Shown here: one piece after another, positions 3,732-53,404 of the stretch
Layout of the letters: every line of letters begins with the position of its first letter
Numbering within the stretch: position 1 is the first letter of the stretch
Assembly: GCA_001938485.1 (NCBI GenBank)
Contig: MQRK01235125.1
Location: 1-64,000, forward strand
Length of the DNA stretch: 64,000 bases
Direction of reading: 5' to 3'
DNA from: Girardia tigrina
Lineage: Eukaryota
The notes under the pieces: model-generated
The model's input: only the letters and a program-made list of their open reading frames with translations
What the model was told of the DNA's origin: nothing
Database searches by the model: none
Program-made: the position numbers and the translations under genes

Positions 3732-4130
3732 TTAGTTGGCTCTCGTTTTGCAAGTCGGAGACTCGTCGTCGGATTGGCAATCATTGCCAATTCTTGCGGC
3801 ATTGCTCGCAAAATATGTATTATTTTTCGACGCATTAAACAGCGCTTTCATTTTATCTTTGGAGGCAAAATCTAACGCCTGCGTCGGGAAATACCGGATG
3901 CAATTTGCCAGATTTCCTCTCTAAAATGGAACTAAACCTTCATTTCGAAATGTGACAATCGTACAATCGATCGTCCAGTTGTATGGTCGGTCAATGAGAC
4001 CTTGTCTCAACATTTCTTCTTGGTTTTAAACCAACAATTTAACACGTTCTATCGGAACTTCTGCTGTTTTCGAGATCACAGCAGCAAAGTCGCTCAACGC
4101 AAAATTTTCAATAAAACTCAATTCCTTCAT
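3732..4130 (-). pseudogene. 5' fragment of a mitochondrial ADP/ATP carrier (ANT/AAC, SLC25 family) pseudogene
   Basis: Manual translation: MKELSFIENFALSDFAAVISKTAEVPIERVKLLV*NQEEMLRQGLIDRPY...[31 protein letters not shown]. Contains the PIERVKLL and RYFPTQAL carrier motifs and two in-frame stops. Homology fades near 3810. Confidence 0.9.
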
Positions 4131-4172
4131 AATGATGATAATAATTAAATAAGAAAAGAAATCAATAATTTT

Positions 4173-4234
4173 TGTTTGATATCAATTTTTTCTGCCAACT
4201 TTTATTCGTTAAAACAAACTCAACTCATTAATTA

Positions 4235-4272
<38 letters not shown>

Positions 4273-4441
4273 TATCGGTAATAAATTTACTTTTCTGATC
4301 CATATACATACATATATATACATATATATATATAACTATATATACACAATTTTAATTAAAACATTTTTTACTTAAATATATATTTTTTTTCATTTTTAGT
4401 AAAAAATTCTTTCTGAAATTCTTTTAATTCATTCTGAAACA
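4173..4441 (-). repeat. 3' LTR of the BEL/Pao element
   Basis: On the minus strand it starts TGTTTCAG right after the PPT and ends ...ATCAAACA, with AATAAA ~30 nt before the end. The distal end is inferred. Confidence 0.6.
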
Positions 4442-5531
4442 TCCTCCCCTTGATTCGACGCAGGAGAATCAGAACAGTAACGTAGCTCGAGAGGAAAAAT
4501 CTGAGTTATGTTCTTTATCATTCTTTTCCCATTAGCGAGTGCTTCTACTACTATCACCCTTTGGTCAGCTCCTTCAAAGACCTTTGTCACTCGAGCTAGC
4601 CTCCACTTTCCCAGATCATACTTACTATCCAATAGCCATACCATTTCTCCTTTTTCTAACGACTTCGATTCCTTTTCCACTTTGATCTTTTCCTACACGT
4701 AACAGCAAGTTCTCATCTCCAACGCTTCCAGAAAGGATGTGTCAGTTCTTGCACTCTTCTCCATCTTAACCTAAGGGAAGCTGTATCCGCTGGCTCTAGA
4801 TCTTGTTCTCCGGTTTCTAGCCCACCTCTTAAATAACAATTTGGTGTCAGAGTATTATCATCCTTCGGATCTTGGCTAATCCGGCTAGTCCAAAATCTGC
4901 AATTGATTCCTGATAGACAATAAGCCACACCAACAAAATGTCCATCTCGTTTATGTTGCTCTCATATCAATAACAACGTTATCCAGCTATCTTATTGAAG
5001 AATCCTGGAAAACGAGTCTCCCAATCTAAAAATGCAGGTTCGTTAACTTAGAATTCGCCCTCGTTAATCCATTCTAATCGATCTTTGGATTCATCTCCAT
5101 CAGAGGGCTATTACCTGGAACCTTACCCACTTTAGTCATTCCTTCCATCTTCTTGTGATAAACTTATCTTTATCTTCGCGAAAGATCCTCACATTCCTCT
5201 AACTCATCTTTTGATAGATTACGTTTTTCTGTTTGAACTTTTTCCTTGCGGCAATTGGTTATAAATCTGATTACCCAGGTTCGTACCTTCAACAACCTTG
5301 ACCAAGTCGAGAATGACCCTGTTTATAACTGTCATAATTGAATTTCGGATTTACTTCTTCCTGTACTTCATTTACCGCCATGAACAACCGGTTCGGTTTC
5401 TCTTCCATTGGCATACAATTCAAATCAGTATTCTTACAAGACTGCCATGTCTCTTCTGATTTATATACGATAGGAGACCAAGTTAACCAGTTCTCCCAAT
5501 TTCTGAGCTCATCTGTTTTAGTCCTCTAGAC

Positions 5532-5950
5532 CAGTGGTTCCTAACCTGGAGGTAATTACCCCAGGGGTAAAAAGGGTAATTCTTTAGGGGTAAAAAGGCA
5601 TCCACTAAATGTTAGTGATGCCATCTTTGTTACTAAAAAATACAGTACAGTAACGCATTTGGTTCATATGACATATACTCTTTATTACTATCGAAACTGC
5701 GTGTATAAACCAGTTTGATATGAGAGAGGTTGAGCATGTATTCCGGCGCATTATCGCGTTTGAGCTCCACAATGCACACACGTGATGCGCTGTGACTCAG
5801 TACCCAGTCTATCGGGCCGTATTGGTAGTTTGAGATTTAAACAAGTCATATATAAAGTCATATTTAAACAAGTCAAGTTCAATTGTCTCTCATTACGTAT
5901 AACTACCAGTTTTGAAATAATTAAAATATTATTTACTTTTTTGACTATAA
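5532..5950 (+). mobile_element. Truncated hAT (Charlie-like) element inserted in BEL pol
   Basis: Starts with hAT-type terminus CAGTGGTTCCTAACC followed by GGGGTAA subterminal repeats. Only one end is present. The BEL RT region is missing next to it. Confidence 0.55.
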
Positions 5951-7084
5951 GTAATCTTCGTTCCAAAGCATTGATTCTAGACTTTTCTGCCAACCTCTTT
6001 ATCATTCGGAAGCCGTTCCTCTTTCTGTCACGGTTCTTCAAGCTGCCAAAATCGCCTCACTTCCCCTTCCAGATTTCTGATGCAGTAGGTCCAATACGCT
6101 TCCTGGTAGTTAGAAGGGACCATCCCGATACACGTCCACCCCATTGTTGTCAATCTAGCGACCGGTTCTCCTTCCTTTCCTTTAATTTCTCTTAATGAAG
6201 AATGTAGTTCCGGGTAATATGCTCCTATAAGCATATCAACTGATCCTTTTGAACCAATATGAGAAAAATAAACATTTTTCGAATGGTTTCATTGAGAAGC
6301 CAATCTTCTCCAGTTGGTCACCTTCATATTCTCCACTAGGGTCTTGACTGCGAATGCATGAATTCTTTTGTTTACTTTTCCATCCAAACTTCATATTTCA
6401 ACTCCAATTTCCTTTACGTCCAACGACGTTTCAATCCTCCAATCACTCCGACCGAAATATTTTTATGTTGCTCATTCAGTTTAAACTCGTTATCAACCGC
6501 TTCACTTATATAGGTCAAAGAACTAGCATTGTCAAGAAGAGCGTTTATAAATAAGGACTTTGTATTCAGCTTTATTATCATCGGGACTGTTCTCAGAGCT
6601 ACGTAACGATTCTCGTCCTTTTTTCTGTATTTCTGGTTGCTACAGTCTGTCCGCATTTATGTGTTGATTCAGTAATCTCTTTTCCCTCATAGTGAATTAG
6701 AGAGTGGTGCTTTTTCTCGTATTGTTTGCATTTTTGGCGTATCCAACAATCTTCAATTTATGCTTTCCTTTTAAACAATTGAAACATAATCGCTCTTATT
6801 TTACAAATTTATATTTTTCCATGACTGACATTTTCTTGAATCGACCACAATCTTCTAATAGATGATTTTTTTCTTGTCAAGACCAGCATTTTTTATCGTC
6901 TTAAATGCATTTGGTTCTTGTCACTCTAAACTAGTAAAAATGTGTTTTTTGAATTTTACTCTTTTGGGATCCGGTTCCAAATAATCTGTCCTGAGTGCTT
7001 CTTCTGAGTACAGATTCCTTAGAAATCCATTCATGTAATTTCTTTATCCTTGACTCTTCGGAATGAATATAAAAAAATGAATAT

Positions 7085-7170
7085 AAAAAATATAAATCTC
7101 TATCCACCTTTTGTACTATAATAATATAAAAAATATAAATCTCTATCCACCTTTTGTACTATAATAATAT
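7085..7170. repeat. 43-bp tandem duplication disrupting BEL gag
   Basis: AAAAAATATAAATCTCTATCCACCTTTTGTACTATAATAATAT occurs twice in tandem. Confidence 0.85.
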
Positions 7171-7958
7171 ATCCATTGGAAGTTTTTTCAAGAGACATTG
7201 AAGCACCATTCCGTCACGCAACTCAGATTCTTTTTCCATTTCTCTTAATCGTACAATGATATTTTCAGTCATTTCCGTAAACTTTTCCATTTCTTCCACT
7301 TCCCCGGATCTGATTGGGCGAAATTTCTCAAATTCCTTTAGAATTGAAAGATACAAGCGTTTCTTTCCACCATATCTTGAATCCAGGCGCTGCAAAGCCA
7401 AATCAAAGGCCTGAACCCTATAACCGAGACTTTCAGTTAATCGAAGAGCAGGACCACTCAAATAATTGCAAAGGTGGAGTAACTTTTCTTCATTGGGAGC
7501 TTCCGCTTGTTCAATACAGTGTCGGAAGGATACTCTCCAGCTTTTATACTCCTTTACATTCCCGTTGAAAGTTGAGATTAAACGTTTTTAAATTGCTTAA
7601 GGTCCTTCTTTCTGTGGTTGCTGAACCATAGCTTCGAGTGGTCGTTGTCGCTCTTGCTTCTCCTTTGATCAGCAATAGGTTTTCCAATTCTTCGTACTTT
7701 CTTACAATACATTTCAGATCTTCCTCAATTTCAAAAGTTTCATCCTGTTTTCCCAGTTTGATACCGATTTCTTTCAAAGTTTCCAGATTCTCCAGTACTT
7801 TAAGATATTTTCTTCATACTGGTCTCTGGCTTTCATTTGTTCTCCTTCACGAAGAGTAGGATCGCAAACTTTATTACTGAAATGAGTAAGTAACCCTTTT
7901 TCTATTTTTATCTGTTAAGCCCATCGGATAATTTCTTTTTCATTTCTTCTGATTCCAT

Positions 7959-8184
7959 TCCACCTCTAATTCGTAATACAAGATTGATTGTCGCTTCATC
8001 TGGTATGCTTTGATTAAGTAGACTTACTCCGTTTTTTAACAATCTTCCTGCACTCACCAGACACTGGTGGGCATTCGGAATACCCTATTTATCCTGAATT
8101 TTGGCATTAATAATCTGTCGTGTCGCTCGCATCGACATCCAAGGTAATAGTTTTCCCTGTCAATGTCTTAACGATCAGTTGGAT
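7959..8184 (-). pseudogene. Complete ubiquitin-like domain fused to BEL Gag (one frameshift, one stop)
   Basis: IQLIVKTLTGKTITLDVDASDTTD / INAKIQDK*GIPNAHQCLVSAGRLLKNGVSLLNQSIPDEATINLVLRIRGG. 226 nt equals 76 codons minus 2 nt. Followed immediately by ATG at 7958. Confidence 0.92.
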
Positions 8185-9561
8185 CGGCTTTATCTCAGAG
8201 TGTCTGATTGTTACGCTACTTATTAAATGACACCCAATCGGGTTGTTCTGGATACTTTTAAAATTATTATCTTGGGATTGATCCATCAAAATGTCGATAT
8301 GAGCGTCCTCAACTCCTGAAAAACTCTTATTTAATTTCACCATGGAGAGATCCTTGACCCCCTAGGTAACTTGTACCTCAAAATTTTAACCTGGGCGATC
8401 ACATTTGATTCTCGATCGATTATCTTTTTACAGATCTCGTCTTCAAGCGGTCTCTTTTACAGAAGATCAATTCGCTTTTTCTAGGAAATGACGGGACTCA
8501 GAAACCGAATACTAATGAAGTTTATCATGTGGAGCAACATTTCAGCCACCGGCAACCACTTTCTCATAATAAACTTCAGCAGACCCTTTGGTTTAAGCAT
8601 GCATTCATCCCTATACAATTTCAAATGAACCGCACACCAGTGAATCTAAAAAAACTACACTGGTTCCACCAACCGTACTCGGGATCCCGTCAGAATACAC
8701 GACACCCATAGTTGCTCCCCCCACGACATAATAAAAAAGGAAGGATGTCCCATAATTTGTATTGATTTTAAGTTTATTATATAAATTATTATTTAAATTA
8801 ATATAAATAATTATATTACAAGAAACATTAATATTAACAAAAATAACACAGAGATCGTAAACAAATGTCACCTGAATTGACGGCGGATGACGACAACCAC
8901 GCTTTGCTACCATTGTTACTGTCTATTTTAATTTTCTTGACCCTCTGATGGTCATTTCTCGCTCTTTGAAAGCAAACTCGTAACATCTATTTGAAAACTT
9001 GCTTTTCAATGAATAACGTTGCCTATAACAATTTAAAACCATTTAGAGTCAATCTGGAAAAAGGAAAAAAACGATTAATGAGTTCCTCATGAACTGAACG
9101 ACGATCCTTCACTTCCATTACTCAAGAAGAATAACCGCTTAAAAGCTTATTATCATTTATTAGTTAAGGTGTTGTTTCGGCATCATAGGGTAAAAGGATT
9201 TATTCTTTTATTTATTATACTATTATATTTTTTATTAATAGCCGACGTTCGTTATCCAAGGGAAGAAAAAATTGGGCTTTTAAATTTTAAAATTTGTGGT
9301 ACAAATTTAATATTCAAATTTAATGTTACAGAAATTTGTTAAAATGTTCTAAATTCTTTAAATATTTAAAATGGTCATTTTACTATTTTGTAATTTCAAA
9401 TAAAACAGATTAGGGAATAAGATCGATGGCTTATCTGACTAATAATTCAATTGAACCAATATCGTGTAATACAATAAAAAATCGAAATTAAAAAAGGTAA
9501 GTAAAATAAAATAATAAGAATAAAAGACAATTTGGAAAAGATAAACGACAATTAATCTCTT

Positions 9562-10263
9562 TTATTTTCTGTGATCATTTGTTTGGGAAAGAAATAATTT
9601 CAATCTTTCAGTTGTTTTTTTAATTAGTTTTAAATTTCCTCCTCGTAAATAATCTTTAGAAATATTATTCGGTAAATCTTCTAGAGGAAACCATTTGGTA
9701 TATTCTATTTCTCTGTATACATTCGGATACATGTATATATCCATATCTATATCCTCAACAATATAGTACCGAAAGTACATTCCGTATTCACACAAATCGA
9801 AATAACGGTCGGCTTTAATAAGATTAGTTACGTTTACTCCGATTTCTTCATACGTTTCTCTTATCGCACAATCCATGAGACTCGAGTCCGTCGATTCGAC
9901 CTTACCTCCCGGAAATGTTAAATATTCGTTTGATACACCTTTTGTGAGAACAACGTGCTTCTTTTCTTTATCAAGCAAAATTATATTAACACGAGGAAGA
10001 TCAATTCGACTTTTGCACCATTTGTCGTACTCAACGCCGACATCGAGGTATTCAGGGAGAATAAAATTCAAATAATGTTTAATATTATTAATAAATATTC
10101 TCATATTATTTTTTGAGGGTATTTCAGTCACTTTATAAGAATCTATATAATACCAATACATTTTTTCAAGTTGGGTAAAGAAAATTTGTAAGTCTTTAGT
10201 AAAAGTTCTCACTTCTGTAAAGAATCTTACAAATAATTCGTTAATGATGTCTGATGTTATCAT
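9562..10263 (-). CDS. DCP2: Dcp2-like mRNA decapping enzyme (Box A + Nudix), intronless, 233 aa
   Basis: N-terminal Box A-like IINELFVRF...FFTQLEKMYWYYID (W and D retained). Nudix box FPGGKVESTDSSLMDCAIRETYEEIG. C-terminal EIEYTKWFPLEDLP. Open ORF in AT-rich flanks. Orthology versus paralogy is not resolved. Confidence 0.8.
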   Translation of the reverse strand: MITSDIINELFVRFFTEVRTFTKDLQIFFTQLEKMYWYYIDSYKVTEIPSKNNMRIFINNIKHYLNFILPEYLDVGVEYDKWCKSRIDLPRVNIILLDKEKKHVVLTKGVSNEYLTFPGGKVESTDSSLMDCAIRETYEEIGVNVTNLIKADRYFDLCEYGMYFRYYIVEDIDMDIYMYPNVYREIEYTKWFPLEDLPNNISKDYLRGGNLKLIKKTTERLKLFLSQTNDHRK

Positions 10264-13200
10264 TATTAGTTAATAAATTAATATTGGTTAATTATGTTAA
10301 TAAAAATAAGTAAATGGAATTCGAAAAATTAAATTATGTATTTCAATCAAAATGTATTGGTCAAAAATATATTATAATTTTCTATCAAATTTTTAAAAAT
10401 ATTATTTCAAAAATTATATTTTTTTATAACAATTCTTTAATTTTAAAAATTGAAATGTATATATAAAAGAAGAAAAAAAATTTATAATTCAAATTATTCT
10501 TTCAAGAAAGGACTTTTTTATTTATTCTAAAGTTAAATAAAATTTTAATTTAAATTTTAAAATTTTAAGCAAAATATATTCAAAATAAACAAATTAATTA
10601 CTTTTCATTAAATTTTGATATTTTTAAAATTTTTAAAAAATAATTTTAAATTTCAATTTTAAATATTTTTTGACATTTTATGAAAAAAATACAAAAAATA
10701 AAACATTTAATAAAATATAAAAATATTTATTTGAATATTTAATTAAAACTTTTAAATTTTATTTAATTTATGTATATTTAGATATTTATTAATATATATC
10801 TTTAATAATTATTACCACAAATATAATATGATATTTTCGATTGATTTCATATAATTATGAAATTACTCAAAATTTTATTTATTAGTGAATTTATATCAAA
10901 CATATTCATGAGAATAATCTTGTTGTTTTTCATCTATTATATTCTTTAAAAAATTAATTTTTCAAAATATTTACAATATCTCTTGCTTGTGCACATTTGA
11001 TTGTGAAAATACAATCTTAAAAATGAAAATAAATTTAAACTTTAAAAATTTGAATTAAAAATAGCTTTAAATTAAAAATATAAATATTTAAATGAACATT
11101 AAAGTTAAAATCTAATATTTGACATTTAAAAATAAATTATCACAATAAAATTACTTTATTATATTTAAATAAATAAAGTCTTCGGGTATTTGTTCCATTG
11201 AGAGAACACAGAGTATCAACAAAACTGTTAGTGGTTACTGTATATTGAATGACAGAAATTAAGAAACTACAAATTTAAAATTATATTATTTTTTTTTATT
11301 GGATAAAGAGTGTGATAAGAATAAGAAGATAAAAAATTATGGTTTTGAGGATGAATGTATTCGGAGTTTTTCACAAAATTTATCATCAGTTGAGTAATTG
11401 CTTTGAGGATTGTATATAATTTTTAAGGGACAGAAGCGATTATCTTTAGAATAAGATGCACAATTTGATATGATTTCTAAGTCTTATTATTCACGATTCA
11501 GTTTGTCTGGATATTTGTTCGGAATGTGTGATGAAGGTGATTCACATAACCCAAGATTATTCTGATGTCTTCCAATTTAATCGTAATTGAAGTTATATGT
11601 TTATGGAAGGAATAAATGAATAAGCGAAAATTGTCCGATATAAGTTCGATTATTTTGCGTAGTCTGAGTAGTAAAAACAAATTCTGACTAACGGATTCAA
11701 ATTTATAATTTATTTAATTTATATTTTAAATTTAAATATTTTATATTTAATTTATATTTTTTGATATATAGATACTTAAATTAGTTCACTATAAAATTGT
11801 GTTTGTCTCATCAACGACAAAATGATTTTTTTCGTGTGAACAAAAAATTTATTTACGTTTATGAGCTAATTTTGTATTTAAAATTTTGTGACACGGATGT
11901 CTAATTAATACACTGGAGAGACATAGTGCCATTATCGACTGGTCTTACTGAGCCCATACATCTCAGTCAAAAGAGTAATGTTTTAGAAACATTAGTCAGT
12001 CAAATTAAAAGATGAATTATAGATTTTGATTTTGAGTTTTTGTTGATCCGTGTAATGATCAACAATTTAATGTAATTTAATTACATATTTATACTATTTA
12101 AATATCATTATTATTTATATCATTTTAGTACTGATTATTAATTACTTAATTTATTATAATTTATATATTAATTAATTTATTATAATTTGTATTATTTTTA
12201 TATTATTTATATTATTTAACATTATTTATATTATACTCTTAACAACATTAAGTCGTTAAGCGATTTTGAAAAATTAAAATTTTAAATTGGTCGATCAATA
12301 ATAATTATTAATCATAAAAAACTAAATAATTAAAAATTATATTTGGGTTTCACTGTTTTTTTTCAAGACAACTGACTTTATATATCTCACCGAAATTTGT
12401 ATTGTTGGAGATGATTTAAATATCTGTCGAAGAATATATCTATCCGTGTGATTCGTTGTTAATAATTACTGTCTAATCTTCATGCCAGTCAATTTAAGTG
12501 TCAAATATAATTAATTAATTATATATTATTATATATTAATTAATTATATATTATAATTATTATATTTTTATTCTTCATTTCCGTAATAATAAAGTGTTAG
12601 AGGATTTGTCCAAAAACCGATCAGATCCAATAACAAATTTTATCAGACACAAAATCCCTTGGAGAAATATTCAAGCAAAAGTAGCAAAGCTGGAACAATC
12701 TTAAGTATTTTTTAATGGATGACATTTAATTTTTGGGTATTTTTATTTTTACTGTAAATTTTTAATCGTTAAGTTTAATATATTACCACATATTTTTGAA
12801 AAAAATAATAAAATTTAAGTTTTAATTATAGCTTTGTTTTGTTTTATTTTATTAAAAACTATGATTCTTTTTGATAATAAATAATGAAAATTATTTATTC
12901 TTAATAAATAATATGGTATAGTTTTTAAAAGTGATTTTTCTAAAATATTTTGGAATTATTTCTGAGATTTTAGAAAATAATAATGATGTAATTTTTATTT
13001 CATAAACCAATTCAATTTATATTTAATATTTTTATTTCTGACAAATATTTATTTGTATAATTTTATGCAATTTAATACAGCGTAAAAATTTAAAGTGTTT
13101 GTTTAAACTCTGCGCTCTGATAATTGATCAAACATCTGAATACGTTCTGTTTAAAACTATACGAGTTGTAGATCAAATTATTTGGCGTGTGAGAAAAGTA

Positions 13201-16896: not shown

Positions 16897-17699
16897 TTAT
16901 AACATTTTCCTGGTCAATATGTTGTAAAAATAATTAAGTATACGTGTCTACTTGCAGACTGCAAGTAGAAGTATGCATTAATCAAACAATGCAATTGTAA
17001 ATGTTGCCAAAATGACATCATAAATCTATTTTTTAGTTTTTTTCTAAGAATTCAAAGAATTGTCTTTATCATGGACTTGACTGCTATACAGCATGCACAG
17101 ATAGTGACTTTGGCTACCCACACATACAAAACACGTATTTCATGTCTTTTTTTCTCATTATGTCATTAAAACCGCCCCCATTGTATTAAAAAATAATTGT
17201 TCGAGAATAAAATTGAGTTTTTGTCTGACTCCGCTTCTCGTGTATAACCTCATTTTTATTAAATAATTATTATATAATTTATAAATTATAATATAATGTT
17301 ATAATATAAAAACCCAATGTTTTTGTCGAACAAGTTTTGTAATAACAATTAATATTTATTTTAAATAATTAAAGCTTCGCCGTTTTATATTTAATGCATT
17401 TTAAAACTAATATAAAAATTGAATATCTTTTTAATATAATTTTTACTAGTAAATTTATTATTCAATATTAAAATAAAAATTTAATTTTCAATATTATTTT
17501 AATTGTCAAGTTGTAATTATTTAACGGTATTTATTTTACTAATACTAAAAACAATTTTACATTTTTTAAATAAATATAAATATTTTTTGTAAATTAATTC
17601 CATAAAGTTGTAATAATATTTCTTTCTTTTCAAATTATATTTAACCAATCAAAAATTTATATTATTAAAATTTATTTTCATTTTCAATATTTTACAAAA

Positions 17700-18728
17700 A
17701 TGATTTATAGCAACAACAGCTTGATGAATATAACGTTCCATGTAAAAGGAATAACTGCATGGTTTTTCTTAAGTATTTCTATTTGTATCTTTGGATCATT
17801 GACCAATTTATGGTGTGGCTTGTTGATATTTGTATCGAAAGGTTTATGGAAAAGACCAATCTATCGAGTAATTCTTGGCATCATTATACCTGATTTTATA
17901 GCCAATTCTATTTGCGTTCCTTATGAAGCCACACAAACTTTTTATAGAATATATTTTAATGAAATAAATGGTAATGATACCGGATGCATGATTGAGGCCA
18001 CAATCTTCATCATGGTACTCTCCATATCAAACATCAACCAAATGATAGCAGCTTGTTACCGATTATGTGGGGTTATCTCTCCCGTTAAATTTCGAATTAT
18101 TTCAACTATTAAAGTAGTAAATATACTCATTTTATCGATATCCTTTGCTCCAGTATTTCTATTCTTCATTTGTGGTATAAACACCTTAATCTGGTATCGT
18201 ATTCATCCAACTATCGGAGACTGCAGTGAAATATCCCCAAGTATGTCAATTGATTACCTCCGCAATTCCCTATTTCAATTTATACCAACTTTAATATGTG
18301 TTTTGGCATATTTGGGAATAGTCATTAGAATAGTTTTTGTTGGTTCAGATAAGGATTTGAGGAAAACACTGATTAAAAGAGCGAAAGGAAGTCTCGCGTT
18401 AGGAGCCAGTATGGCTGTTTATAGTACATGTGTCATCTTATACTGGACGGATTATAATTCTACCGATTACGGATCGAACATAAATATGAATGTATGGAAA
18501 AAATTTACGGCCAGAGCTTCTTATGGTATTGCACCGGTGATTTATTTAACATAGATTATATATGATTATTAAAACTAATTTTAGGTGTTTTATCTGACAT
18601 TAGATAAAAATATTCAAGAGAGTTCAAGAAACATTATAAAGAAAGCCAAAGACAAAAAGAAGAGTGTGTTCTCCATAATAATAGGATCAGACAAAAATAC
18701 ATTTCATTCGCATTCGGGGATTAATTAA
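17700..18728 (+). CDS. Orphan rhodopsin-like (class A) GPCR, ~326 aa; exons 17700-18536 and 18585-18728
   Basis: Seven hydrophobic segments. TM1 GSLTN, TM2 D, Cys at top of TM3, YRL in place of DRY, ECL2 Cys. A 48-nt GT..CTAAT..TTTAG intron restores APVFY (NPxxY-like) and helix 8 (LDKNIQESS). Confidence 0.85.
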
Positions 18729-19551: not shown

Positions 19552-19684
19552 AAAGAACATCTCAAAGAACAGATAACTTTGCCGTTTGACTATATTTTTA
19601 ATGTGGATTATTTTTATAAAGACATTTGAAGATAATCATGTAAGAATTCCCAATCAGAGATTGCATATCAAAGAAACTGACAAA

Positions 19685-19762
19685 ATTTCAGCACCTACTA
19701 AAATTTGTGAAGACATTCATGATCAATGGTGTGAATTAATGAGAATATTTTAAAGTTGTGGA
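19685..19762 (+). pseudogene. Short PP1/PPP-family Ser/Thr phosphatase fragment
   Basis: ISAPTKICEDIHDQWCELMRIF*SCG resembles the PPP motif APLKICGDIHGQY.DLLRLF..G. Only ~26 codons. Confidence 0.6.
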
Positions 19763-20035
19763 AACAGTATTGGAACGAATTTTTGGAAAATAATCACCAA
19801 CGAACACGATGTCAAACCGATCACTGGTGTTTACGAAGGTAATAGTGATTTGCAATTACAGAGAATTTATGTTTACTTTACTTCTGGAATTCATGGAAAG
19901 TGTGTGCCGATCAGTGTCATGGTTAAATTGAATAGTACCACTCTCGATTACGTACTGAATTTGAATCTTGGGGAATTTTTTTCAACCAGATTATTTCATC
20001 GGTGGTTCCTACAATTGACGATTGGGAGCTATACG
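19757..20035 (+). pseudogene. N-terminal beta-tubulin pseudogene fragment
   Basis: CGNSIGTNFWKIITNEHDVKPITGVYEGNSDLQLQRIYVYF...GKCVPISVMVKL...LGEFF/QPDYFI aligns with beta-tubulin CGNQIGAKFWE...SDLQLERINVYY...GKYVPRA...FRPDNF. Confidence 0.9.
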
Positions 20036-31849: not shown

Positions 31850-32284
31850 GATCGGGTCGCAACACTCTTCCAACACGATATGGCACCAATCCAAACATCG
31901 CACCTCATTAAGGATTTCTTCGAAACAAGTGGCATAAATGTAATACAAAGCCCCGATTTGAACCAATTCGAATTCCTTTAGGATGAAGTAGACCAACGCG
32001 TTCGTAAAAGGCATGTGCTTCTATGGAATGCCACTGAATTGAAACTTCAGCTGCGGAAGAATGGGTGAATATTCCTCTTCAGCTTCTGAAAATATTTGTC
32101 GATTCTCTGCCAAACCATGTAGGAGCAGTCATAAGAGCAAAATGAAACTGTACTAAATACTAATTTTCCCATTTCCTCACCTGTTTTCTGCATTATATTT
32201 GTGTTTTAATGTTATAGAATTCATTGCGACCAGTTAAAAGTATTAAAAAGCTACTGACCGAAGACTTTTGGTAGGACAAGGTAT
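31850..32284 (+). mobile_element. 3' fragment of a Tc1 element
   Basis: FQHDMAPIQTS...QSPDLNQFEFL...EWVNIP...VDSLP...AVIRAK...TKY*, followed by a TIR-like end. Confidence 0.75.
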
Positions 32285-32287
32285 ATA

Positions 32288-34820
32288 CAGGGGTGGCCAT
32301 AAGTCGCTTTACCCAGTTTTAATAATAATAAACACAAAATTCTAAATGATACAACTTTTATTTAATCAGCGTACAATAATAATTTCAAAACAAAAACTTG
32401 AAAACAATTAAATCTTATCTTCAAAGTGTTGTCCTTCAGATTTAATATACAACTGGATTCTTCTCTGAACAGAGTGACAGATTCGTCGGCACAAGTCTTT
32501 ATCGTTGTTCAAGGCTGTAAATTCTGTAGTAATTCTTTCCTTAAACTCGGATGTGGTTAGAATATTTTGTGAGTAAACGCGTTCCTTCAGAATACTCCAC
32601 ATTGAATAATCACAAGGTTTCAGGTCCGGTGATTGTGGAGGCCATTCAGTGGTTCCTCTCCTACCGATCCACATCTCAAAAGTGTTAAGGCACTGAGTAA
32701 GGGATAACTTACTTTCCTTTACTCGGCTATTGTGCTTAACAAAGGAAGATCGAAAATCTTCAATTATTTTATTAAAATCTTTTACTAAGTTCGCTTAAGG
32801 TGTTACTCACAGAAATTTAATTTTTAATTTAAAACTTTTGTGATAACAAATGATCCATAATTATTTGCAAAACAAGAAAACAATTATTAAATATCAATAA
32901 TGCAAAACAAGAATTCTTTTTATAAAATTTTATTGATAAATATATAATAATAATTTACAAAACTCAGATTTAAAAGAATAAAATAGTTACAAATATCCTT
33001 TGTATGGTGCGGTAATTAGATCGCTTCGAAATCACCGTTTCGAAACTCTATCAATTTAGTAATATAAGATTATTATTTTAATATAATATAAATTAAATTT
33101 TATGGATTTTAAATATTTTATTTTAAGGAAAGTGTAATTAAATTATAGAAATCACCAGAAAAAAATTTAGCTTCAAGGCAACTGAACGCTGTCTTCTTCA
33201 GAAATTCAATTCACGGACTTCGTCGGGAAATTCAATCAACACAATAATCGTAAAAATTCGCTTTTCGTCGGAAAGTTCAATTCACGGAAAACGTGACTGG
33301 AAGCTTGGAATAAGAAAAATTTTAATTTTAAAATTTAAACATGAAAACAAAAATATTACCTAAGAAAAATTTTAATTTTAATCAACTATATTGCCGAGTA
33401 CTTTCTTAATATACAAAATCTGTTGCGTGGCCACATAATACAATTGTGGTAAAACGCGTGCTAAGAACGTCAAAAGAAAACGCATGGTTCGCGTAACTTA
33501 TTATGAGAAGAAAAAAAATAAAACGCGTGGCTCGCACAAAGAAAAAAGAATAGTGCATGCGGCCACCGCGAATATGGACGCACTATGCGTGACAGCAACG
33601 AATAGTGCGTAACGAAAGGTCTCACAAGCTCTAAACAAATAAATATAATAAAATAAATTTTAAATTTAAATATAAATAATACATATAAATTTTAAATTTA
33701 TTTTAATTAAAATTATAAATAATAAATAAAAACAATAAATAATATCTTCGTACTATTTAATGCGAAGAATACAAGAAAAAATAAATAAAACAATTAAATA
33801 AACAAAATAAACAAGGCACGTAAATAAATAACTAATGTCAAAAATAAATTGTTTTTATTTATATTTATTTTACATTCCACAACAAAAGTGTTATCCAAAA
33901 AGTCGCGTACATTTCTACCATTATGAGGGGGAGCACCGTCTTGCATCCAAACGTCGTTATCTGAGTCAAGCTGAGGTACGGCAAAATCACGCAGCATATC
34001 AAGATATAGCTGAGAATTGACCGTTCCATCAAAGAAGTATGGACCCAGCACACCAGTTGAACGTATTCCTCTCACACACAAATTCCTGGAGAAAGATTGT
34101 TGGTCTCCAATACCAGATGAGGATTATCATTGGAGTAGTTCACGGAATTATGCAAATTAACGTGACCATTCAACTTAAATGAAGCTTCGTCAGTCCAAAT
34201 AATTCTGTCCCTGATGTCAATGTTCTCATGGAGTTGTTGCTGTAACCATTCGCAAAATTCTATGTGCCTGTCATAATCGTCATCATTCATTTGATGGAGC
34301 AAACGAGGTCGCCAAACTTTCAACTCAATGTCCTTCATTATTCTACATAAACTTATGCGTGGTATATGCAACTGCAAACTTGCACGAACTGCAGATGTTG
34401 ATGGCGCAACTTTATAACTTTCTGATAGAAAGTTATAACATTTTCTTTATTTTCATCGGTATTCATATTGTTAGGGCGCCCACTTCTTTTCTTGTCGGTT
34501 ACAGAGCCGGTCTCGTGAAACTTTTTAGCCAAAACATGCATTGATTGTCGTGATGCATTGATTGTCGTGCAAATGCTGCAGCTACAGCTCTTGAATTTCT
34601 ATCATGCTTTATCCATTGCTTTACTATAAAAATTCGTTGCTGAAGTGTTAATTGTCGTGCAAATATTTCCAACAAAAATGAACAAAATGAAATAATTTTA
34701 AAAATTTTAAATAAGTAATTATTAAAACAAAAAATTTTATCTGGTTTTTGTTTATAAATCATTTAGAACATTGTGTTTATTATTATTAAAACTGGGTAAA
34801 GCTACTTATGGCCACCCCTG
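32288..34820 (-). mobile_element. Tc1/mariner superfamily element of the DD41D (rosa/Visitor) group, here DD40D, with a nested solo LTR
   Basis: ~50-bp TIRs CAGGGGTGGCCATAAGT...ACCCAGTTTTAATAATAATAAACACAA with TA TSDs. Motifs KRSGRP, WTDEASF, WMQDGAPPH, WIGRRG, WPPQSPDLKPCDY. Frameshifted. Confidence 0.92.
32683..33884. mobile_element. 1.2-kb solo LTR (TGTT...AACA) with AAAG target-site duplication
   Basis: AAAG at 32679-32682 and 33885-33888. Excision restores RDFLDNTFEMWIG in the transposase. Confidence 0.82.
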
Positions 34821-37412
34821 TATATCAATAAATAAAATTAGGTAAATTTTTTTTAACATGTATATTTTCATTAGATATATCTCGTATCAAATGATCAATC
34901 AAAATAAAAGAAACATTAAAGTCTCTTAGTGGTTAACTTTCTCACTAATTTGATAACTCAAGGCTTCTTAGCGATATGTGAAATTGGATGACATTCTTCG
35001 TTTCTTCTCTGTCTAGTGGTTGTCAGCATTGTATCTAATTTTCTTTGTAGATGACATATGATTTGTACAACATTTTTAGTCTTTTCTTATTGTTGTTATT
35101 CTAATTTTGAACATTTTTATAAGCCATTCTCAACTATAATACATCTCAGTTTTGCTCATTCATGTCTATGCTAATTTCCTCTATCGTAAAAACTTTGGCG
35201 GTGCCTATAGAAATAGAAACAGTCTATAGTCAATTCTTCTAGATCAGCGGAAAACCGATACTAACAAACTATCCCCTATTATTCGTTGTCTAATCTTTAT
35301 TCAACATAACGAGCTTATAAACTTCTTTCTATTGCTCTTCTTTTTAAAACTTTGTATTTTAGGTCAGCATTACCCTCTTTCTAAGGAGATCTAAGGAGAT
35401 TAACTTGAATTTGAGTCCTCGCTATCTACAGAATGTTTTGAAATGAGATCACTCATATTCATCGATTTTTCAATAATCCTTTATTGATTTTACCTGACAG
35501 TGACTTTGATTACAATTAACTCAAACCTTTACCGGTCATATAATTTTGAAACTTGACATTGAATTATTCGTTTGTAATTCACAAAAAACATTAAACAAAT
35601 GTTCGTTTCTTTTATTTAACTAATGCAAAGATGAGGTCGGTCAAGCAAGGGAATCATACTAAAATGTTTAGAAACGAATAAAATCATCAATTATTATCAA
35701 TCATACAATTCATACCTAGACTTTTTGCAATAAAAGTTTCTTTTCAAATTTTCAAATTTTAATTTAAAAATTTTAATTTTAATTTATTTTTCTTTAAATT
35801 TTGTATAATGAAAGAGAAACTTCTTCAATTTTAACATCATTATATTTTGTGTCAGTAATATTTTATCTATTACCTTATTTGATTTATTCATTTGTTTAAT
35901 TTAATTTATCTTACATTATGACTCCGAGACTTAAAAAGAAAAAAGTAAAATCGCAGCAAAGTTTAATGAATAAATTTTATGTCATTTAAAAAACTTTCAT
36001 TTAATTTTATTATCATTAATTTTGAGATTTTATTTTGTAAAATCATTCTTAAATATTTTCATTAGTTTCGGCAATTTGTTTAACTGATAAAATTATTTAG
36101 CTGAATATTTTAGTAACAGGCTTAAGTTTTATGTTAACCGGAAATTGAAAAATAATTTTAATCCTCCCTTAACATGTATTTTTAAAGATAGAGGCACTTT
36201 AAAATAAAATAAGTGTATTTGTAAACTGCTAGTTGCGCCATCACTAGTAGTCATAAGTAGCACAATTAATAATTTATATTATACACAAATTTAAACAAAT
36301 GTTCGTTTCTTTTCTTTAACTAATAATCATTTCGCCGATTTATATTATTTAAAAAATCTTTCTATTATCTTAAAATATTCTAATAATTTTACAAGAAAAT
36401 ATTTTGTTTCAATCATTATTTTCATTTATGAAAGTTTTAAATTTTAAAATTTAATTAACTTAAAATACAATTTTTTCAAAATTATAATTAATTTTACATA
36501 CTTATTTTCAAATTATTCAAATCTCAATCAGCAAAATGAAAAGTAACTAAATCCTCATATAAACGAATGACAAGTTAAAAAATTGTGTCCCTAATATTTG
36601 ACACTTTTTAAGCTATGGTTTATAATTTATTTAATTTTTATATTTTTTATATGAAGAATATAATTCCTTAAAATAGGTAAACACATTATTACAATTTACA
36701 TCTATAAAAATTTATTTGCTATTTATATTTATCATAACATCATTAATTTAGACAAAGGAATTCATACAGTTTCTGTCCAGAACATGAACCTGATTTACAG
36801 TAAACTCCGGCCTATGATATCCATTTTCATTATTAAAATTTTACTCTAGTTTTTTTAATTTAATCTTAGTTTTTGAATTAAATTTTAATTGAGGGTTCTA
36901 TACACTTATCAGTTCCCACAATAGTTACATGAAAACATCCCCCAATAAAAAGATAACATGTAGTGCTTTAATGGACTTTGAAACGAAAATTATCAGTATT
37001 TAAAGATCGGAAACAGTCTAAAAATAATCAGATTGAAAGTCTTAGAAGAAGAGTCTTTTTTTTTAAAATTACTTTGCAAGTAATTTAAAAAATAACTAGA
37101 TTTTATCAAATACAAATTCTCTAAAATTACGTTTTTATTTAACAAAAATTGGAAATTAACATCTTCCAGTTCTTATGAAACACAATTTTATACTTAGAAC
37201 TCTTATTAATCTATATTAAAACATTAAAAAAATATTAAATCATAATTAATTATTATATTTCTTAAATTAAAATAATTCGTTTTGTAGGGATTTTTTATTT
37301 TAATAATAGATAATTATTTCAAAAATAAGTCGACTTTAGATATAAATTAGAGAAAATTCTGTTGGATAAATACCGAAATCAAAAAACAAATGCTCTTATA
37401 GATATCACAGAA

Positions 37413-48083: not shown

Positions 48084-48600
48084 TGTGAGGAATATTTTAA
48101 ATTTGGTATATTGAAATTGGTTTGTTGAATTTTGTATGTTGAGTTTAGTATTTGGAAATGTGTTTCTCCCACCCAGATGGAAAATTGATATTTTTAAATA
48201 ATTATTCGAACATAATTTGCATTTTAAAGTACAACATAAGATATTTAAAAACATTAAAAATATTAAATCGTTTCAAATTTTCATATTAAAATTTAAATAA
48301 AATAAATAGTTTTAACTAAGTTTTGAATTAATTAAATATTCTTTCTTTCAATAAAATATTTTTTAAATAAAATTAATATGTAAATAAAATTGATACTAAA
48401 ATTACCAAATTTGAACTGTAAAAATAAAATCTGAAAATAATGAAAAATTTGTTCGAATAATTGTATATTAACAAACATTAATAAAAATTATAAATTTAGA
48501 ACGATGTCGAATGACTAGAGTTTTGCTGAGAGTTGTCCAAAAGACAATTCTGACTGTATTGAAAATAAAAGTTTGAAAACCCATGTTGGTGTTCTTAATA
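48084..48600 (+). repeat. 5' LTR of the Gypsy element
   Basis: TGTGAGGAAT...GTTCTTAATA followed directly by the PBS. Highly similar to 53405-53930. Confidence 0.9.
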
Positions 48601-48945
48601 TGGCGACACACGACCACGTGATTCCGAACATCAGANNNNNNNNNNNNNNNNNNNNNNNNNNNNNNNNNNNNNNNNNNNNNNNNNNNNNNNNNNNNNNNNN
48701 NNNNNNNNNNNNNNNNNNNNNNNNNNNNNNNNNNNNNNNNNNNNNNNNNNNNNNNNNNNNNNNNNNNNNNNNNNNNNNNNNNNNNNNNNNNNNNNNNNNN
48801 NNNNNNNNNNNNNNNNNNNNNNNNNNNNNNNNNATCTATCCTGGATCTAATGAAGGAACTGGTAGAAATGAGAATTGGATCTAGCGACCCAACAATAATA
48901 TTTTGAAAGGCTGATGGAATCATTGAAAAGTTAATTGAGAAAAAG

Positions 48946-49782
48946 TTGGGTAAAAAGGAACTATCAAATTTGGTTTACGCTAATTTGATAGATGACGAGA
49001 ACTTACAGAAAGAAATAGCTATTAGAGGTGTCAAGAAATCTGAAGAGATTGAAGATATTCAAACGAGAATGTTCGAATATGATAAAAAGAAAAGAAATGC
49101 TCCTGTAGCGGCATATAACACAAAAAGAGAAAATGAATGGNNNNNNNNNNNNNNNNNNNNNNNNNNNNNNNNNNNNNNNNNNNNNNNNNNAAGAAATGCT
49201 CCTGTAGCGGCATATAACACGAAAAGAGAAAATGAATGGAGAACAGTGGAAAATAAAAAAAGAACACCAAGGCCACAGAACGAGAAATTCATAGAACAAG
49301 AAACAAGAATAAATTTAAAAGTTCGAAAAATTACCTGTTGGGCATGCCACGAAGAAGGACATGTTAGAAGAGAGTGCCCTAACGTGAAGTGTAGTCATTG
49401 TAATAGAAAAGGGCATTTAAGAACACAGTGTTATGAAAACCCTAATAGATTTAGGGAGCGTGATCAATGGAAAAGGGATAATGTAAATAATCGATGGAAT
49501 AACAGGCAAAATTACTCAAATCAACGGCATAGAGAACGGCCAACATACACGAATAGGAAATATCCAGTAGCAGAAGTTGACGAACTAGATGATGAATTGT
49601 ACATAAGAGAAGACTCTAGAAAAGGGGACTATTCTGAAGGAACGTATAGAAGAGAAGATGGCAAAAGACTGGAATATCTCGTGTGTAACAGAAAATTCAG
49701 AAATGATCAGGGAAACGAGGACGCACGATCACAGGGAGAAGTGATCAGTGTGCTACAATATGAACTCAATGTAGGTGTATGA
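48946..49782 (+). pseudogene. gag: Gypsy Gag (C-terminal part, nucleocapsid zinc knuckles)
   Basis: CWACHEEGHVRREC and CSHCNRKGHLRTQC. Confidence 0.88.
49710..49753 (+). promoter_or_regulatory. Putative -1 ribosomal frameshift signal (gag-pol)
   Basis: In-frame slippery heptamer G GGA AAC, 6-nt spacer, hairpin GCAC-GATCAC/GTGATC-AGT-GTGC. Duplicated near 50269. Confidence 0.7.
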
Positions 49783-50506
49783 TTGATTGTATGTATGAAT
49801 GCGTTTGTGATTGTATGTTTGATGATGTGTTTGAAAATATTCCTCTGGAGATGTGTAGATTAATAATGAACCTGAAGAAGACGATGAAATATGTGCTAAT
49901 ATGGATATAGAAAATGAGAAAAAAATTAAAATGAATGCTGAAGATGTATTGATATTACCGAAGTTTAACATAAATTATAAAGAATTGAAAGGTAGACCAN
50001 NNNNNNNNNNNNNNNNNNNNNNNNNNNNNNNNNNNNNNNNNNNNNNNNNCGATGGAATAACAGGCAAAATTACTCAAATCAACGGTATAAAGAACGGCCA
50101 ACATACACGAATAGGAAATATCCAGTAGCAGAAGTGGACGAACTAGATGATGAATTGTACATAAGAGATGACTCTAGAAAAGGGGACTATTCTGAAGGAA
50201 CGTATAGAAGAGAAGATAGCAAAAGACTGGAATATCCCATGGGTAACAGAAAATTCAGAAATGATCAGGGAAACGAGGACGAACGATCACAGGGTGAAGT
50301 GATCAGTGTGCTACAATAGGAACTCAATGTAGGTGTATGATTGATTGTATGTATGAATGTGTTTGTGATTGTATGTTTGATGATGTGTTTGAAAATATTC
50401 CTCTGGAGATGTGTAAATTAGATAATGAACCTGAAGAACAGGATGAAATATGTGCTAATATGGATATAGAAAATGAAAAAAAATTAAAAAGAATGCTGAA
50501 GATGTA

Positions 50507-53393
50507 TTGATATTACCGAAGCTTAACATAAATTATAATGAATTGAAAGGTATACCAAGTATAGAGTTCCGAATAAAGAATAAAAATGTCGATTGCATGT
50601 TAGATACAGGAGCTCGAGTCAACGTTATTAAAGCAGAGATAATTAAAGATATGAAAGATGTCAAGATCAAAGAAACTAAAAGACGAATACATTGTGCGAA
50701 TGATTCAGAANNNNNNNNNNNNNNNNNNNNNNNNNNNNNNNNNNNNNNNNNNNNNNNNNNNNNNNNNNNNNNNNNNNNNNNNNNNNNNNNNNNNNNNNNN
50801 NNNNNNNNNNNNNNNNNNNNNNNNNNNNNNNNNNNNNNNNNNNNNNNNNNNNNNNNNNNNNNNNNNNNNNNNNNNNNNNNNNNNNNNNNNNNNNNNNNNN
50901 NNNNNNNNNNNNNNNNNNNNNNNNNNNNCTGTTTGAAAACAAAATTGACAACCAACTAATGGAACTTTTAACAGAATTTAAATCAATATTTATGGCTGAC
51001 AAATGGGATATTGGAAGGACGTCACTGACCAAACACAAGATCGAAACACATGGAAAACCAGTTTTAGTGAAACCTTATCGACAACCAAAACATTTTGAGG
51101 AAAAACTGGACGATATTATTCGAAATTATGAAGAAAACGATATTATAGAAAAATGCAGTTCACCGTGGAATTTCCCTCTAGTTTGTGTTTGGAAAAAGGA
51201 GAAACAGGACATTCGAGTATGTGTAGATTTTCGGCAATNNNNNNNNNNNNNNNNNNNNNNNGCATTCCCAATGCCGAATGTTGAGGAAATGTTGAATACA
51301 CTAAATGGAGCAAAGTATTTTAGCACAATCAATTTAGGAAACGCATACCATCAAGTGGAACTTGAAGATGGATCAAAAGTCAAAACAGCATTTTCAACAA
51401 AGGATGGCCAATACTGTTTCAGGAGAATGCCATTTGGAATTGCAGCGGCACCAGCAACGTTTCAAGAACTGATGGTAAGAGTTTTGGGTGAATTAAATTG
51501 GAAAGAGGCAGTTGCGTATATAGACGATATTTTAATTTTCGCAAAAGACAAGGAAGAACACCTCAAACGAATTTAACACGTATTTAGTAAAATAAAGCAA
51601 TGGGGTCTGAGAATTAATCCAGATAAATGTCATTTTGTGGTGAAAAAGACAAAGTTTTTGGGATATGTGATCAGCAGAGATGGCATAGAAACAGATCAGA
51701 CAAAGATTGATGCGATTAGCAAGTTTCAGAATCCTTCATGTGTAAAACATTTGAGAAGCTTTTTAGGTTTAACGAACTATTACAGAAAATTCTTAAAAGA
51801 TTACGCAAAGTATTCAAAAGTATTGGAAGGACTATGCGGAAAAAATAAAGAAAAAAAGCTAATATGGACGGAAGAATGAAACGAAGCGTTTCAAAAATTA
51901 AAGGAAAAGATGATCAATACATAAAAACTAGAATACCCAGATTTCGGAAAAGAATTCATATTGGACACGGACGCTAGTTTTGACACCATTGGTGCGGTGC
52001 TATCTCAGAAAGATATATATGGAAGAGAAAGAGTGATTGCATATGGATCCCACAAAATGAACAAACATGAATTGGGACACTGTATTACGAGAAAAGAACT
52101 GCTGGAAATCTACTATTTTACACAACACTTCAAGCACTATCTGTACGGCAAGAAATTTCTATTAAGAACGGATCATAAAGCCATTACCTTTATGATGNNN
52201 NNNNNNNNNNNNNNNNNNNNNNNNNNNNNNNNNNNNNNNNNNNNNNNNNNNNNNNNNNNNNNNNNNNNNNNNNNNNNNNNNNNNNNNNNNNNNNNNNNNN
52301 NNNNNNNNNNNNNNNNNNNNNNNNNNNNNNNNNNNNNNNNNNNNNNNNNNNNNNNNNNNNNNNNNNNNNNNNNNNNNNNNNNNNNNNNNNNNNNNNNNNN
52401 NNNNNNNNNNNNNNNNNNNNNNNNNNNNNNNNNNNNNNNNNNNNNNNNNNNNNNNNGATAACAAATACTGGATTCCGAAAGGTAAAAGGACTGAATTCGT
52501 GGAAGAAATACACAAGATGTTGTGTCACGCTGGTAGCAAGAAAGTTTATAATTATTTGAAAGATGATTTTGATATGGAAGATATGAGAAAAACGGTAAAG
52601 GAAATTGTGCAAAGTTGTATGAATTGTCAGAAAAGAAAGACCTTAACAACAAAAACAAAAGAGAAACATATTAAGCAATCTGCTGATGAACCATTCCAAA
52701 AAATATATATGGATTTCTTTTAAAAGAAATATTAATGGATGTCAATACATACTAGCGATAATCGATCAATTTAGCAGATAAATCAGTTTGAACGCAGTAG
52801 CTCATCAAGACGAGAGAACCGTGCGAAAGGTCTTACTAGACAAATGGATTTGGAAATACGGACCACCAAAAGAAATCCATGTCGATAGAGGAAAAACATT
52901 CGAATCAGCCCTTTTTAAAGAACCAGCAAATAAATTTAAAGCTGAGATAGTATATTCCAGTTCTTACCACCACAATACCAATTGGATTGTTGAGAGATAA
53001 TTCAGAACAATTAGGGATGCCATGAATATACGGATGAAAGACGAGGTCCACAAAGATTGGACGGAAACCCTGCCAGAAATAGAGTTTATGCTAAATAGAA
53101 CAATTCAGGCAACAACAGGGATATCACCAGCAGAAATAATTTTTGGTAGAAAACTAAGACATTGGTGGAAAAACACCGATGGAAAAAGACCTGTCGAGAA
53201 GGAAATGAATAAAAGCACGACACAGACGAAACGAGTATTCCAAATAGGAGTTAAAGTGCTTATAAAGAAAGAAAACGTAACGAAGGATGAGGATCGATAT
53301 ATGGGCCCAGCCACAATAAAGAACCGACGACATGAAAGAAGTTACGAGATACAAATAGATGATGGCAGAATATTGATCAGAAATGTCATTTAA
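50507..53393 (+). pseudogene. pol: Gypsy Pol (protease-RT-RNase H-integrase), with multiple stops and frameshifts
   Basis: LDTGARVNVI, SSPWNFP, RVCVDFR, KTAF, MPFG, YIDD, LRSFLGL.NYYRKF, DTDAS, and integrase core, in Ty3 domain order. Confidence 0.93.
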
Positions 53394-53404
53394 ATCGAGG
53401 GGGA

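Follow-up and report, generated by a model that had tools for sequence, protein, structure and literature searches.

Organization of the element in the window

The window analyzed here is the whole 64,000-nt stretch of Girardia tigrina DNA (GenBank assembly GCA_001938485.1, contig MQRK01235125.1, positions 1–64,000), and all positions refer to it. Its minus strand carries a broken, decayed copy of a BEL/Pao retrotransposon, which comes from a group of many families with ubiquitin in front of Gag. The features of this copy are given below in the direction of the element; the labels L, C and P designate compared loci, contigs and proteins, respectively.

8914–8971, minus strand: last 58 nt of the 5′ long terminal repeat (LTR), ending in ...ACA; 79–91% match to the ends of the ADP/ATP-carrier-type LTRs L189–L192; remainder of the LTR missing
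8900–8912, minus strand: primer-binding site (PBS)-like motif starting with TGG, within the reading frame and read as L/M-V-A-E/K-R-G; 38 distinct junctions of this kind
8185–8899, minus strand: leader from the PBS to ubiquitin, with frameshifts and stops; overlapping stretches open in L156, L009 and L012
8430–8594, minus strand: decayed piece of elongation factor 2 (eEF2) in the leader; limits approximate, transferred from L012
8343–8185, minus strand: last 53 leader codons, in frame with ubiquitin
7959–8184, minus strand: ubiquitin domain ending in RIRGG; frame change at about 8112–8113 and stop at 8087–8085; intact in other copies
7585–7958, minus strand: N-terminal helical region of Gag, with ATG directly after GG; stops and frame changes
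7162–7584, minus strand: Gag DUF1759 (Pfam E = 3.8e-15)
6690–6890, minus strand: three decayed Cys/His zinc-knuckle motifs; identified by eye, limits approximate, clearer in L016
4700–6660, minus strand: protease and pol remnants with internal deletions; domain order taken from sister copies
4432–4689, minus strand: DUF5641, end of the polyprotein (Pfam E = 2.6e-8)
4442–4451, minus strand: polypurine tract (PPT)
3791–4441, minus strand: 3′ LTR, beginning with TG, end missing; 83–89% to L189–L191, matching down to 3791
3813–4130, minus strand: captured N-terminal piece of a host ADP/ATP carrier, located inside the LTR and starting with ATG; Pfam Mito_carr E = 3.2e-17 when stops are read as X

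Comparison with other copies indicated that the window copy is old and partly deleted. Ubiquitin residues 1–24 are encoded by 8184–8113 and the remainder by 8111–7959 in a different frame, ending in VLRIRGG; the codon after GG is ATG (7958–7956), and the frame continues as MESEEMKKK before further stops. The C-terminal part, with X at the stop, matched Pfam ubiquitin with an E-value of 3e-7, and the N-terminal part alone gave only 0.056. The eEF2 matches were obtained with residues 59–113 of the L012 leader (E = 2.6e-5) and with the sister leader L079 (E = 8e-31); the window's own eEF2 piece had no Pfam match, nor had its pol fragments (13 window pieces scanned). The carrier piece is 72% identical to the host-like carrier gene L205, and lies in the PBS frame in L189–L191. 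The PBS-like motif is a putative match to the initiator tRNA-Met. No LTR pair emerged when the window was searched for repeats, the two LTR remnants being non-overlapping parts. The ubiquitin pieces, the RIRGG end, the following ATG and the 53 in-frame upstream codons reported in an initial annotation of this stretch were all located on the minus strand, and its BEL/Pao assignment was borne out by DUF1759 and DUF5641.

Three further observations concern this copy. Positions 5532–5953 in pol were unmatched by other copies and contain an overlapping frame with a weak CENP-W match (E = 0.013). A local duplication of approximately 72 nt in Gag (7065–7138) is absent from the other copies and from contigs of two sequencing runs, both small-share holders (0.05). 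Contigs of the leaf-litter RNA library X2 span the GG junction (7716–8073, 25 differences); they were not used as evidence because contigs cannot show transcription, strand or start.

The ubiquitin-Gag fusion is a clade trait

The ubiquitin-Gag resemblance in the window is not a chance one. A DNA search of the same genome gave 49 matches, the window included (40 scored of 127 candidates), and a protein search gave approximately 100 rows at 43–54% identity across ubiquitin and the start of Gag (150 scored of 2818 candidates). Ubiquitin adjoined Gag in 40 of the 40 loci fetched from the protein search, which is not a frequency because the query contained both. Several copies are free of stops across ubiquitin, GG and Gag. 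In L012, the frame is open over 525 codons without any N, matches Pfam ubiquitin (E = 2.2e-19) and DUF1759, and aligns with PDB ubiquitin without gaps over 76 of 76 residues (E of about 1e-26). The AlphaFold model of the natural L012 sequence (128 residues, 11-row alignment, mean predicted local distance difference test score of 84.9) has the beta-grasp pattern, with GG in a loop followed by the long first helix of Gag. Contig C237635 has both LTRs together with the PBS and the PPT; its LTR ends are 99% alike over 118 nt, and ubiquitin lies approximately 720 nt inside the element. In the other copies, ubiquitin shares the Gag frame and is located within the LTR-bounded element, so neither of the two refuting conditions set out in the initial annotation held.

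Ninety-two distinct junction sequences were collected. On the basis of 40 in-frame Gag residues, 80 of them were placed in seven families; among the 12 unassigned ones are 3 ubiquitin-ubiquitin junctions and copies in which the frame shifts shortly beyond the junction. GG is kept in 69 of the 80 assigned junctions and in 29 of 33 in the family of the window (family b). The ubiquitin-Gag fusion is a trait of a clade with at least seven families in this genome. Of ten short loci from the top of a Pfam ubiquitin search (3445 candidates), one is a host polyubiquitin gene; in the other nine, a near-canonical ubiquitin precedes Gag-like sequence. Among the tallied junctions, the residue after GG is Met, Ser, Gly, Thr, Arg or Ile and never Pro. 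The commonest residue per family is Met or Ser, with Gly in the protein P0063. Specifically, Met follows GG in families a–d, and Ser or Gly follows in families e and f and in four proteins from outside the assembly (P0063, P0068, P0075, and P0096), so Gag cannot start there in the latter group.

Sequence and conservation of the ubiquitin domain

The ubiquitin domain is under purifying selection between families: among families a–d, the proportion of synonymous differences (pS) is 0.64–0.86 and that of nonsynonymous differences (pN) is 0.15–0.43. Identity to host ubiquitin is 0.45 in family c, 0.59 in family b, 0.72 in family a, 0.82 in family d, and 0.96 in families e and f, the last two having been picked for high scores. 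The initial description of the domain as far more diverged than host ubiquitin applies to families b and c and not to the others. Its reading of positions 48 and 63 as Arg and Asp was confirmed in 18 of 19 and 19 of 19 window-family copies, respectively, and this pair of residues is specific to family b. The accompanying argument that these changes block the main chain types extends to family c (Thr48 and His63) and fails for families a, d, e and f, which keep both lysines. Lys29 is kept in six of the seven families. At the C-terminus, Leu71, Arg72, Gly75 and Gly76 are kept, and Arg72 and Gly76 are among the invariant columns. The binding patch drifts: Ile44 is mostly Met in families a and b, Leu8 is Phe or Ile in families a and c, and His68 is varied.

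Residue 1 is Ile or Val in families a–d, which suggests that translation starts upstream of ubiquitin. In four copies with a partial extra ubiquitin (approximately two independent lineages), the upstream junction reads RGS or RGN and the Gag junction reads RGG. In family e, the ubiquitin is separated by a pS of 0.30 from one host repeat out of three, against mutual differences of 0.62–0.70 among the three repeats; these values suggest that the family e ubiquitin was recaptured from the host. In family e (L194–L197), residue 74 is Cys in 4 of 4 copies of an otherwise near-host ubiquitin.

The open frame begins in the LTR

In L081, L083 and L088, no stop interrupts the frame between the LTR and Gag, across the PBS and ubiquitin; in the window family, the same frame is open over overlapping stretches of L156 and L009. 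At the 38 distinct PBS junctions, which are non-independent owing to shared LTR ends, the upstream open run had a median of 62 codons in the PBS frame versus 5 and 4 in the other two, and the PBS frame had the longest run at 32 of the 38. By eye, an AT-rich start, a hairpin and AATAAA are common to the LTRs. Behind AATAAA the LTRs differ, and these variable parts are referred to as cassettes. Fifty-six LTR ends formed 33 clusters, some of which may be shortened LTRs or flanking sequence; 8 N-rich or truncated clusters were dropped and 25 were kept. Stops were counted over 75 codons per cluster, with the shared last 75 nt excluded. The 25 cassettes have 52 stops in the PBS frame versus 107, 99, 92, 85 and 111 in the other five frames, and 12 of them have at most one stop in the PBS frame versus 1–5 in the others.

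Captured host-gene pieces and leader exchange

Exchangeable host-gene pieces occupy the LTR as well as the leader, a feature beyond the initial annotation. In a six-frame Pfam scan of all 137 stop-free stretches of the 25 clusters, 8 clusters had a match. Seven were to host genes, all in the sense orientation, and one was an antisense GIY-YIG, which probably belongs to a neighbouring element. Four cassettes (H2B, LRR, tubulin, and ADP/ATP carrier) are wholly in frame, and a cyclophilin cassette is in frame with read-through at X (E = 0.0024). The same cassettes were found on families b and c. The leaders hold pieces of Hsp90 or eEF2, the latter in the window family. In families a and d, which share the Hsp90 leader, pS is 0.12–0.22 for the leader versus 0.65–0.79 for ubiquitin and 0.95–1.12 for Gag (12 pairs). 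Such a young leader on old ubiquitin and Gag indicates that the leader moved between these two old families.

Overlapping Hsp90 pieces precede ubiquitin in P0096 (outside the assembly), in L194–L197 and in families a and d, with Gag identities of approximately 30% between these lineages; the Hsp90 piece is either an old leader or the product of a repeated capture hotspot. Two common cassettes with long open frames, L170:767–1240 (minus strand) and L029:708–1031 (plus strand), had no Pfam match; an Atlas search gave a BTB-like lead (0.91) for the former and one weak, unrecognised match for the latter. The LTR cassette at L107:8208–8573 (minus strand) contains a Tudor piece (Pfam E = 3.7e-6). 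Tudor proteins have roles in piRNA pathways. The window contains a second LTR fragment of the clade at 19564–20010 (plus strand), and its cassette is of the tubulin type (Pfam Tubulin E = 5.9e-5). In L006 (C178290), a PPT, one 608-nt LTR and a PBS stand in a row, which corresponds either to tandem elements sharing an LTR or to a circle junction. Two candidates were rejected: C224304 resembled a host carrier gene split by an intron but proved to be an LTR carrying an insertion, and the Dcp2/Nudix gene at 9562–10269 of the window is not a cassette and is part of another repeat ending at 9506.

Relatives outside the assembly

The JGI protein P0036 (1709 residues) contains, in a single frame, an Hsp90 piece, ubiquitin, DUF1759, protease, reverse transcriptase (RT), Peptidase_A17 and integrase. 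It is 54% identical to L012 over 335 residues; its identity to family a is approximately 90%, so it does not count as an independent lineage. When a Gag-only query was compared with 1.84 billion representatives, 6 of the best 150 matches had an N-terminal ubiquitin or a part of it, and the next best had an E-value of 0.42. The ubiquitin-bearing relatives include ranks 1, 2, 3 and 6, with Gag identities of 29–35%. Pfam confirmed ubiquitin in five (58 of the best 150 scanned), with an additional Hsp90 piece in P0096. When a word index was searched for ubiquitin-Gag proteins of 181–578 residues, the result was 0 of 1956 candidates, a blank that reflects its sensitivity limit because the exhaustive search did find such proteins.

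A quick Gag tree was built from 150 rows (139 of the best 150 matches, P0036, and 10 loci). All 18 ubiquitin-labelled rows fell outside a branch of 126 unlabelled rows (Shimodaira–Hasegawa-like approximate likelihood ratio test support of 93). Five unlabelled rows among the labelled ones start only within Gag and give no basis for judgement, and a single long-branch row is at the root. The label requires 6 changes on this tree versus 17.2 when shuffled. The tree would allow a single origin of the ubiquitin-Gag fusion.

Proposed mechanism and alternatives

We propose that these elements make a single polyprotein. The sequences themselves show its layout (a host piece captured within the LTR, then the PBS, the leader, ubiquitin with its GG end, and Gag-Pol), the frame that is open between LTR and Gag, the exchange of cassettes and leaders among copies and families, and selection on ubiquitin and on its GG end. 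The cassettes would lie in U5, behind AATAAA, and would enter when RT, while copying the 5′ end, switches template onto co-packaged abundant mRNAs or the RNA of other elements; template switching into the LTR has been described for BARE-2 (PMC13317346). Only in-frame captures would spread, because only they keep Gag translated. Translation would then be initiated at an ATG within the cassette, and a host deubiquitinase would cut after GG. Host enzymes are reported to cleave linear ubiquitin fusions (PMC9703124) and ubiquitin-like domains at their diGly (PMC8013793). The cut would give Gag a first residue that is constant and stabilising (Met, Ser or Gly), and the leader-ubiquitin piece would be thrown away; ubiquitin would in this way shield Gag from the changeable front end. 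Met, Ser and Gly are stabilising N-terminal residues under the N-end rule. On the sequence evidence, we regard it as probable that translation starts in the captured piece and that host deubiquitinases free Gag with a fixed end. The cleavable Gag leader suggested in the initial annotation survives as the likeliest role, with ubiquitin placed as an internal linker in a frame that starts far upstream in the LTR. A broader proposal, plausible but held more tentatively, is that the LTR takes up pieces of abundant host mRNAs and of other elements as interchangeable translation starts, which a domesticated and occasionally recaptured ubiquitin lets host deubiquitinases remove. The promoter-proximal part could then turn over freely, for expression or for escape from small RNAs, with Gag untouched.

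Several points weigh against these proposals. Cleavage, the start sites and translation of the fusion are what we infer from the sequences. P0064 is without GG. Families a, d and e have Gln, Asn or Cys at residue 74, and the window family mostly has Cys at residue 42; both changes may slow host enzymes. The offset from the PBS to ubiquitin is flat over the three frames (10/10/8) in 28 decayed copies and gives no support by itself. The CCT and SBDS cassettes are split between the PBS frame and another, and the Tudor cassette is out of frame. The carrier cassettes are not inert: their pN/pS is near 0.5 among copies and they are saturated against the one host gene compared, which indicates that the cassettes are old and may be under constraint of their own. 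An mRNA origin of the captured pieces is presumed; the carrier piece, the only one compared with host exons, lies within a single exon of L205.

The alternatives differ in what happens at the GG end. Ubiquitin might stay on Gag, as a handle for the endosomal sorting complex required for transport (ESCRT) or other ubiquitin-binding proteins, or as a tag for stability or solubility. The variable residue 74 and the loss of Lys48 and Lys63 in families b and c would fit, and a cleavage-resistant ubiquitin on HIV-1 Gag is described as restoring release (PMC9703124). What is conserved is Gly75-Gly76, while the Ile44/Leu8/His68 patch used for binding drifts; Lys29 persists in six of seven families, and an uncleaved internal ubiquitin is reported to target the protein for degradation (PMC9703124), and no envelope domain is present in P0036, whose record ends inside integrase. 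We therefore regard a retained ubiquitin as unlikely, and the ESCRT handle offered in the initial annotation finds little support. Somewhat less likely still is that Gag starts at its own ATG after GG (by leaky scanning, an internal start or splicing), with the upstream frame and ubiquitin only enhancing translation or avoiding upstream stops. The Met after GG in families a–d, where Gag could start, weighs for this explanation and against our own, and the frame offset of the decayed copies is uninformative between them. It leaves unexplained the lack of Met in families e and f and the four outside proteins, the protein-level conservation of ubiquitin between families and a frame that is open for hundreds of bases upstream. 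A cut after GG by the element's own aspartic protease, with ubiquitin as a folded spacer, is very improbable: the element encodes a protease and residue 74 varies, but host enzymes recognise the whole fold together with the conserved L-R-x-x-G-G end (Arg72 and Gly76 are invariant; PMC9703124).

Two explanations concern the origin of the domain. It is scarcely probable that ubiquitin is a mere passenger from an abundant mRNA, kept for want of a stop codon. The elements do carry many other host pieces, and the family e ubiquitin, close to a host repeat, was probably recaptured; pN (0.08) and pS (0.09) are also similar within family b, a further point against our reading that is nevertheless expected because copies decay after insertion. 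The passenger is always ubiquitin and always ends at the start of Gag, across Gags only 29–35% identical; leaders change while ubiquitin stays, and GG is lost at the upstream repeat and kept at Gag. Between families, pN is far below pS. This explanation is largely refuted. As for the protease, which we rank slightly below the passenger, a Gly-Gly site is not typical for retroviral-type proteases. A one-off pseudogene insertion into the window copy, which its broken state and the neutral-looking decay of its family might have suggested, is refuted by 33 window-family junctions with ubiquitin in frame with Gag and by six more families that share ubiquitin.

If deubiquitinase release is correct, a mobile element has made natural and long-lived use of the ubiquitin-fusion trick, and the maturation of its Gag depends on a host enzyme. 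Gene capture usually leads an autonomous LTR element into a dead end, and the proposal would explain its tolerance and spread here. A large pool of host-gene fragments in LTRs would also be predicted (first-look candidates numbered 244 for the carrier piece and 3445 for ubiquitin), which can mislead annotation and may contribute to small RNAs directed at housekeeping genes.

Other features of the window

An intact, intronless gene with Dcp2 box A and Nudix domains is located at 9562–10269 (minus strand) in a separate repeat (approximately 9506–10400+). Two copies of this repeat at 95–96% face each other 28 kb apart on C220738, and there are many copies at 67–88%; it may represent cargo, or else the terminal repeat of some large DNA element. 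A 318-codon open frame at 17598–18551 (plus strand) resembles, by eye, a single-exon seven-transmembrane receptor. Further mobile-element remains were recognised by eye in regions 48084–53917, 57868–58293, 32283–34825 and 61642–63193: remnants of a Gypsy-like Gag and integrase, accompanied by direct repeats at a distance of 5.3 kb; pieces of mariner/Tc1-like transposases, of which one pair has 68-nt inverted repeats; and what is left of a non-LTR RT.

Comparison with known systems

The element is a BEL/Pao retrotransposon by domain content, domain order, LTRs, PBS and PPT. P0036 represents the single frame of Gag, protease, RT, RNase H and integrase with Peptidase_A17, the order recurs in L082, L085, L087 and L094, and DUF5641 is present in the window. 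Paired TG...CA LTRs, PBS and PPT are all in place in C237635. The one candidate 5-bp target-site duplication, at the solo LTR L192, has 4 of 5 bases alike. The fusion has a complete ubiquitin fold ending in Gly-Gly with a next residue other than Pro, as a cleavable linear fusion needs, and the captured coding pieces are in the sense orientation expected for mRNA capture (7 of 7 cassette matches and the Hsp90 and eEF2 leaders). The Gag frame of yeast Ty1 likewise begins in the 5′ LTR with the PBS in coding sequence; Ty1 differs in being copia-type, with a constant LTR and no ubiquitin.

With the Belpaoviridae as described (PMC3118150), the present elements share DUF1759 Gag, zinc knuckles, protease, RT, Peptidase_A17, integrase, DUF5641, LTRs, PBS, PPT and a length of approximately 6.5 kb; the present elements differ in having ubiquitin before Gag and a Gag frame starting in exchangeable LTR cassettes. 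The main text of that survey, which cites planarian BEL entries of Repbase, contains the word ubiquitin 0 times. No description of a ubiquitin-Gag BEL/Pao element was found in the literature searched, mostly non-subscription articles, and an earlier Repbase, GyDB or Dfam entry is possible. The planarian giant gypsy-like element Burro (GYPSM1) is also an LTR polyprotein with host-like domains, including a Ubi2/SUMO-like motif (PMC6431247). In contrast, it is gypsy-type and over 30 kb, with an N-terminal Gag and the ubiquitin-like motif in the accessory region, and the account of it describes no cleavable pre-Gag junction. Burro features (gypsy-type Gag and MATH/BIR/BCL2/env) are absent from the present elements, which have BEL markers and are about 6.5 kb long.

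Maize Bs1 and the LTR replacement of BARE-2 (PMC13317346) provide examples of host pieces joined to an element frame and of foreign sequence brought into the LTR by template switch, respectively. The present elements differ from them in holding many pieces in the same LTR slot and in the Gag frame, with Gag-Pol kept and ubiquitin between. Cytopathic bovine viral diarrhoea virus (PMC2850149) has host ubiquitin at the N-terminus of a polyprotein product (NS3), acquired by RNA recombination. These pestivirus insertions are described as repeated, short-lived variants of an RNA virus, whereas the arrangement described here is fixed in an old retrotransposon lineage, before Gag and under selection. 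Parallels in molecular design are the FAU, SDE2 and TUG precursors (PMC8013793) and LIBRON (PMC9703124), in which a ubiquitin fold ending in diGly is cut there by host enzymes to free the downstream protein; in LIBRON, ubiquitin is the cleavage tag that separates the protein from an upstream domain. These are single host genes or laboratory constructs, and not mobile elements with a changing upstream part.

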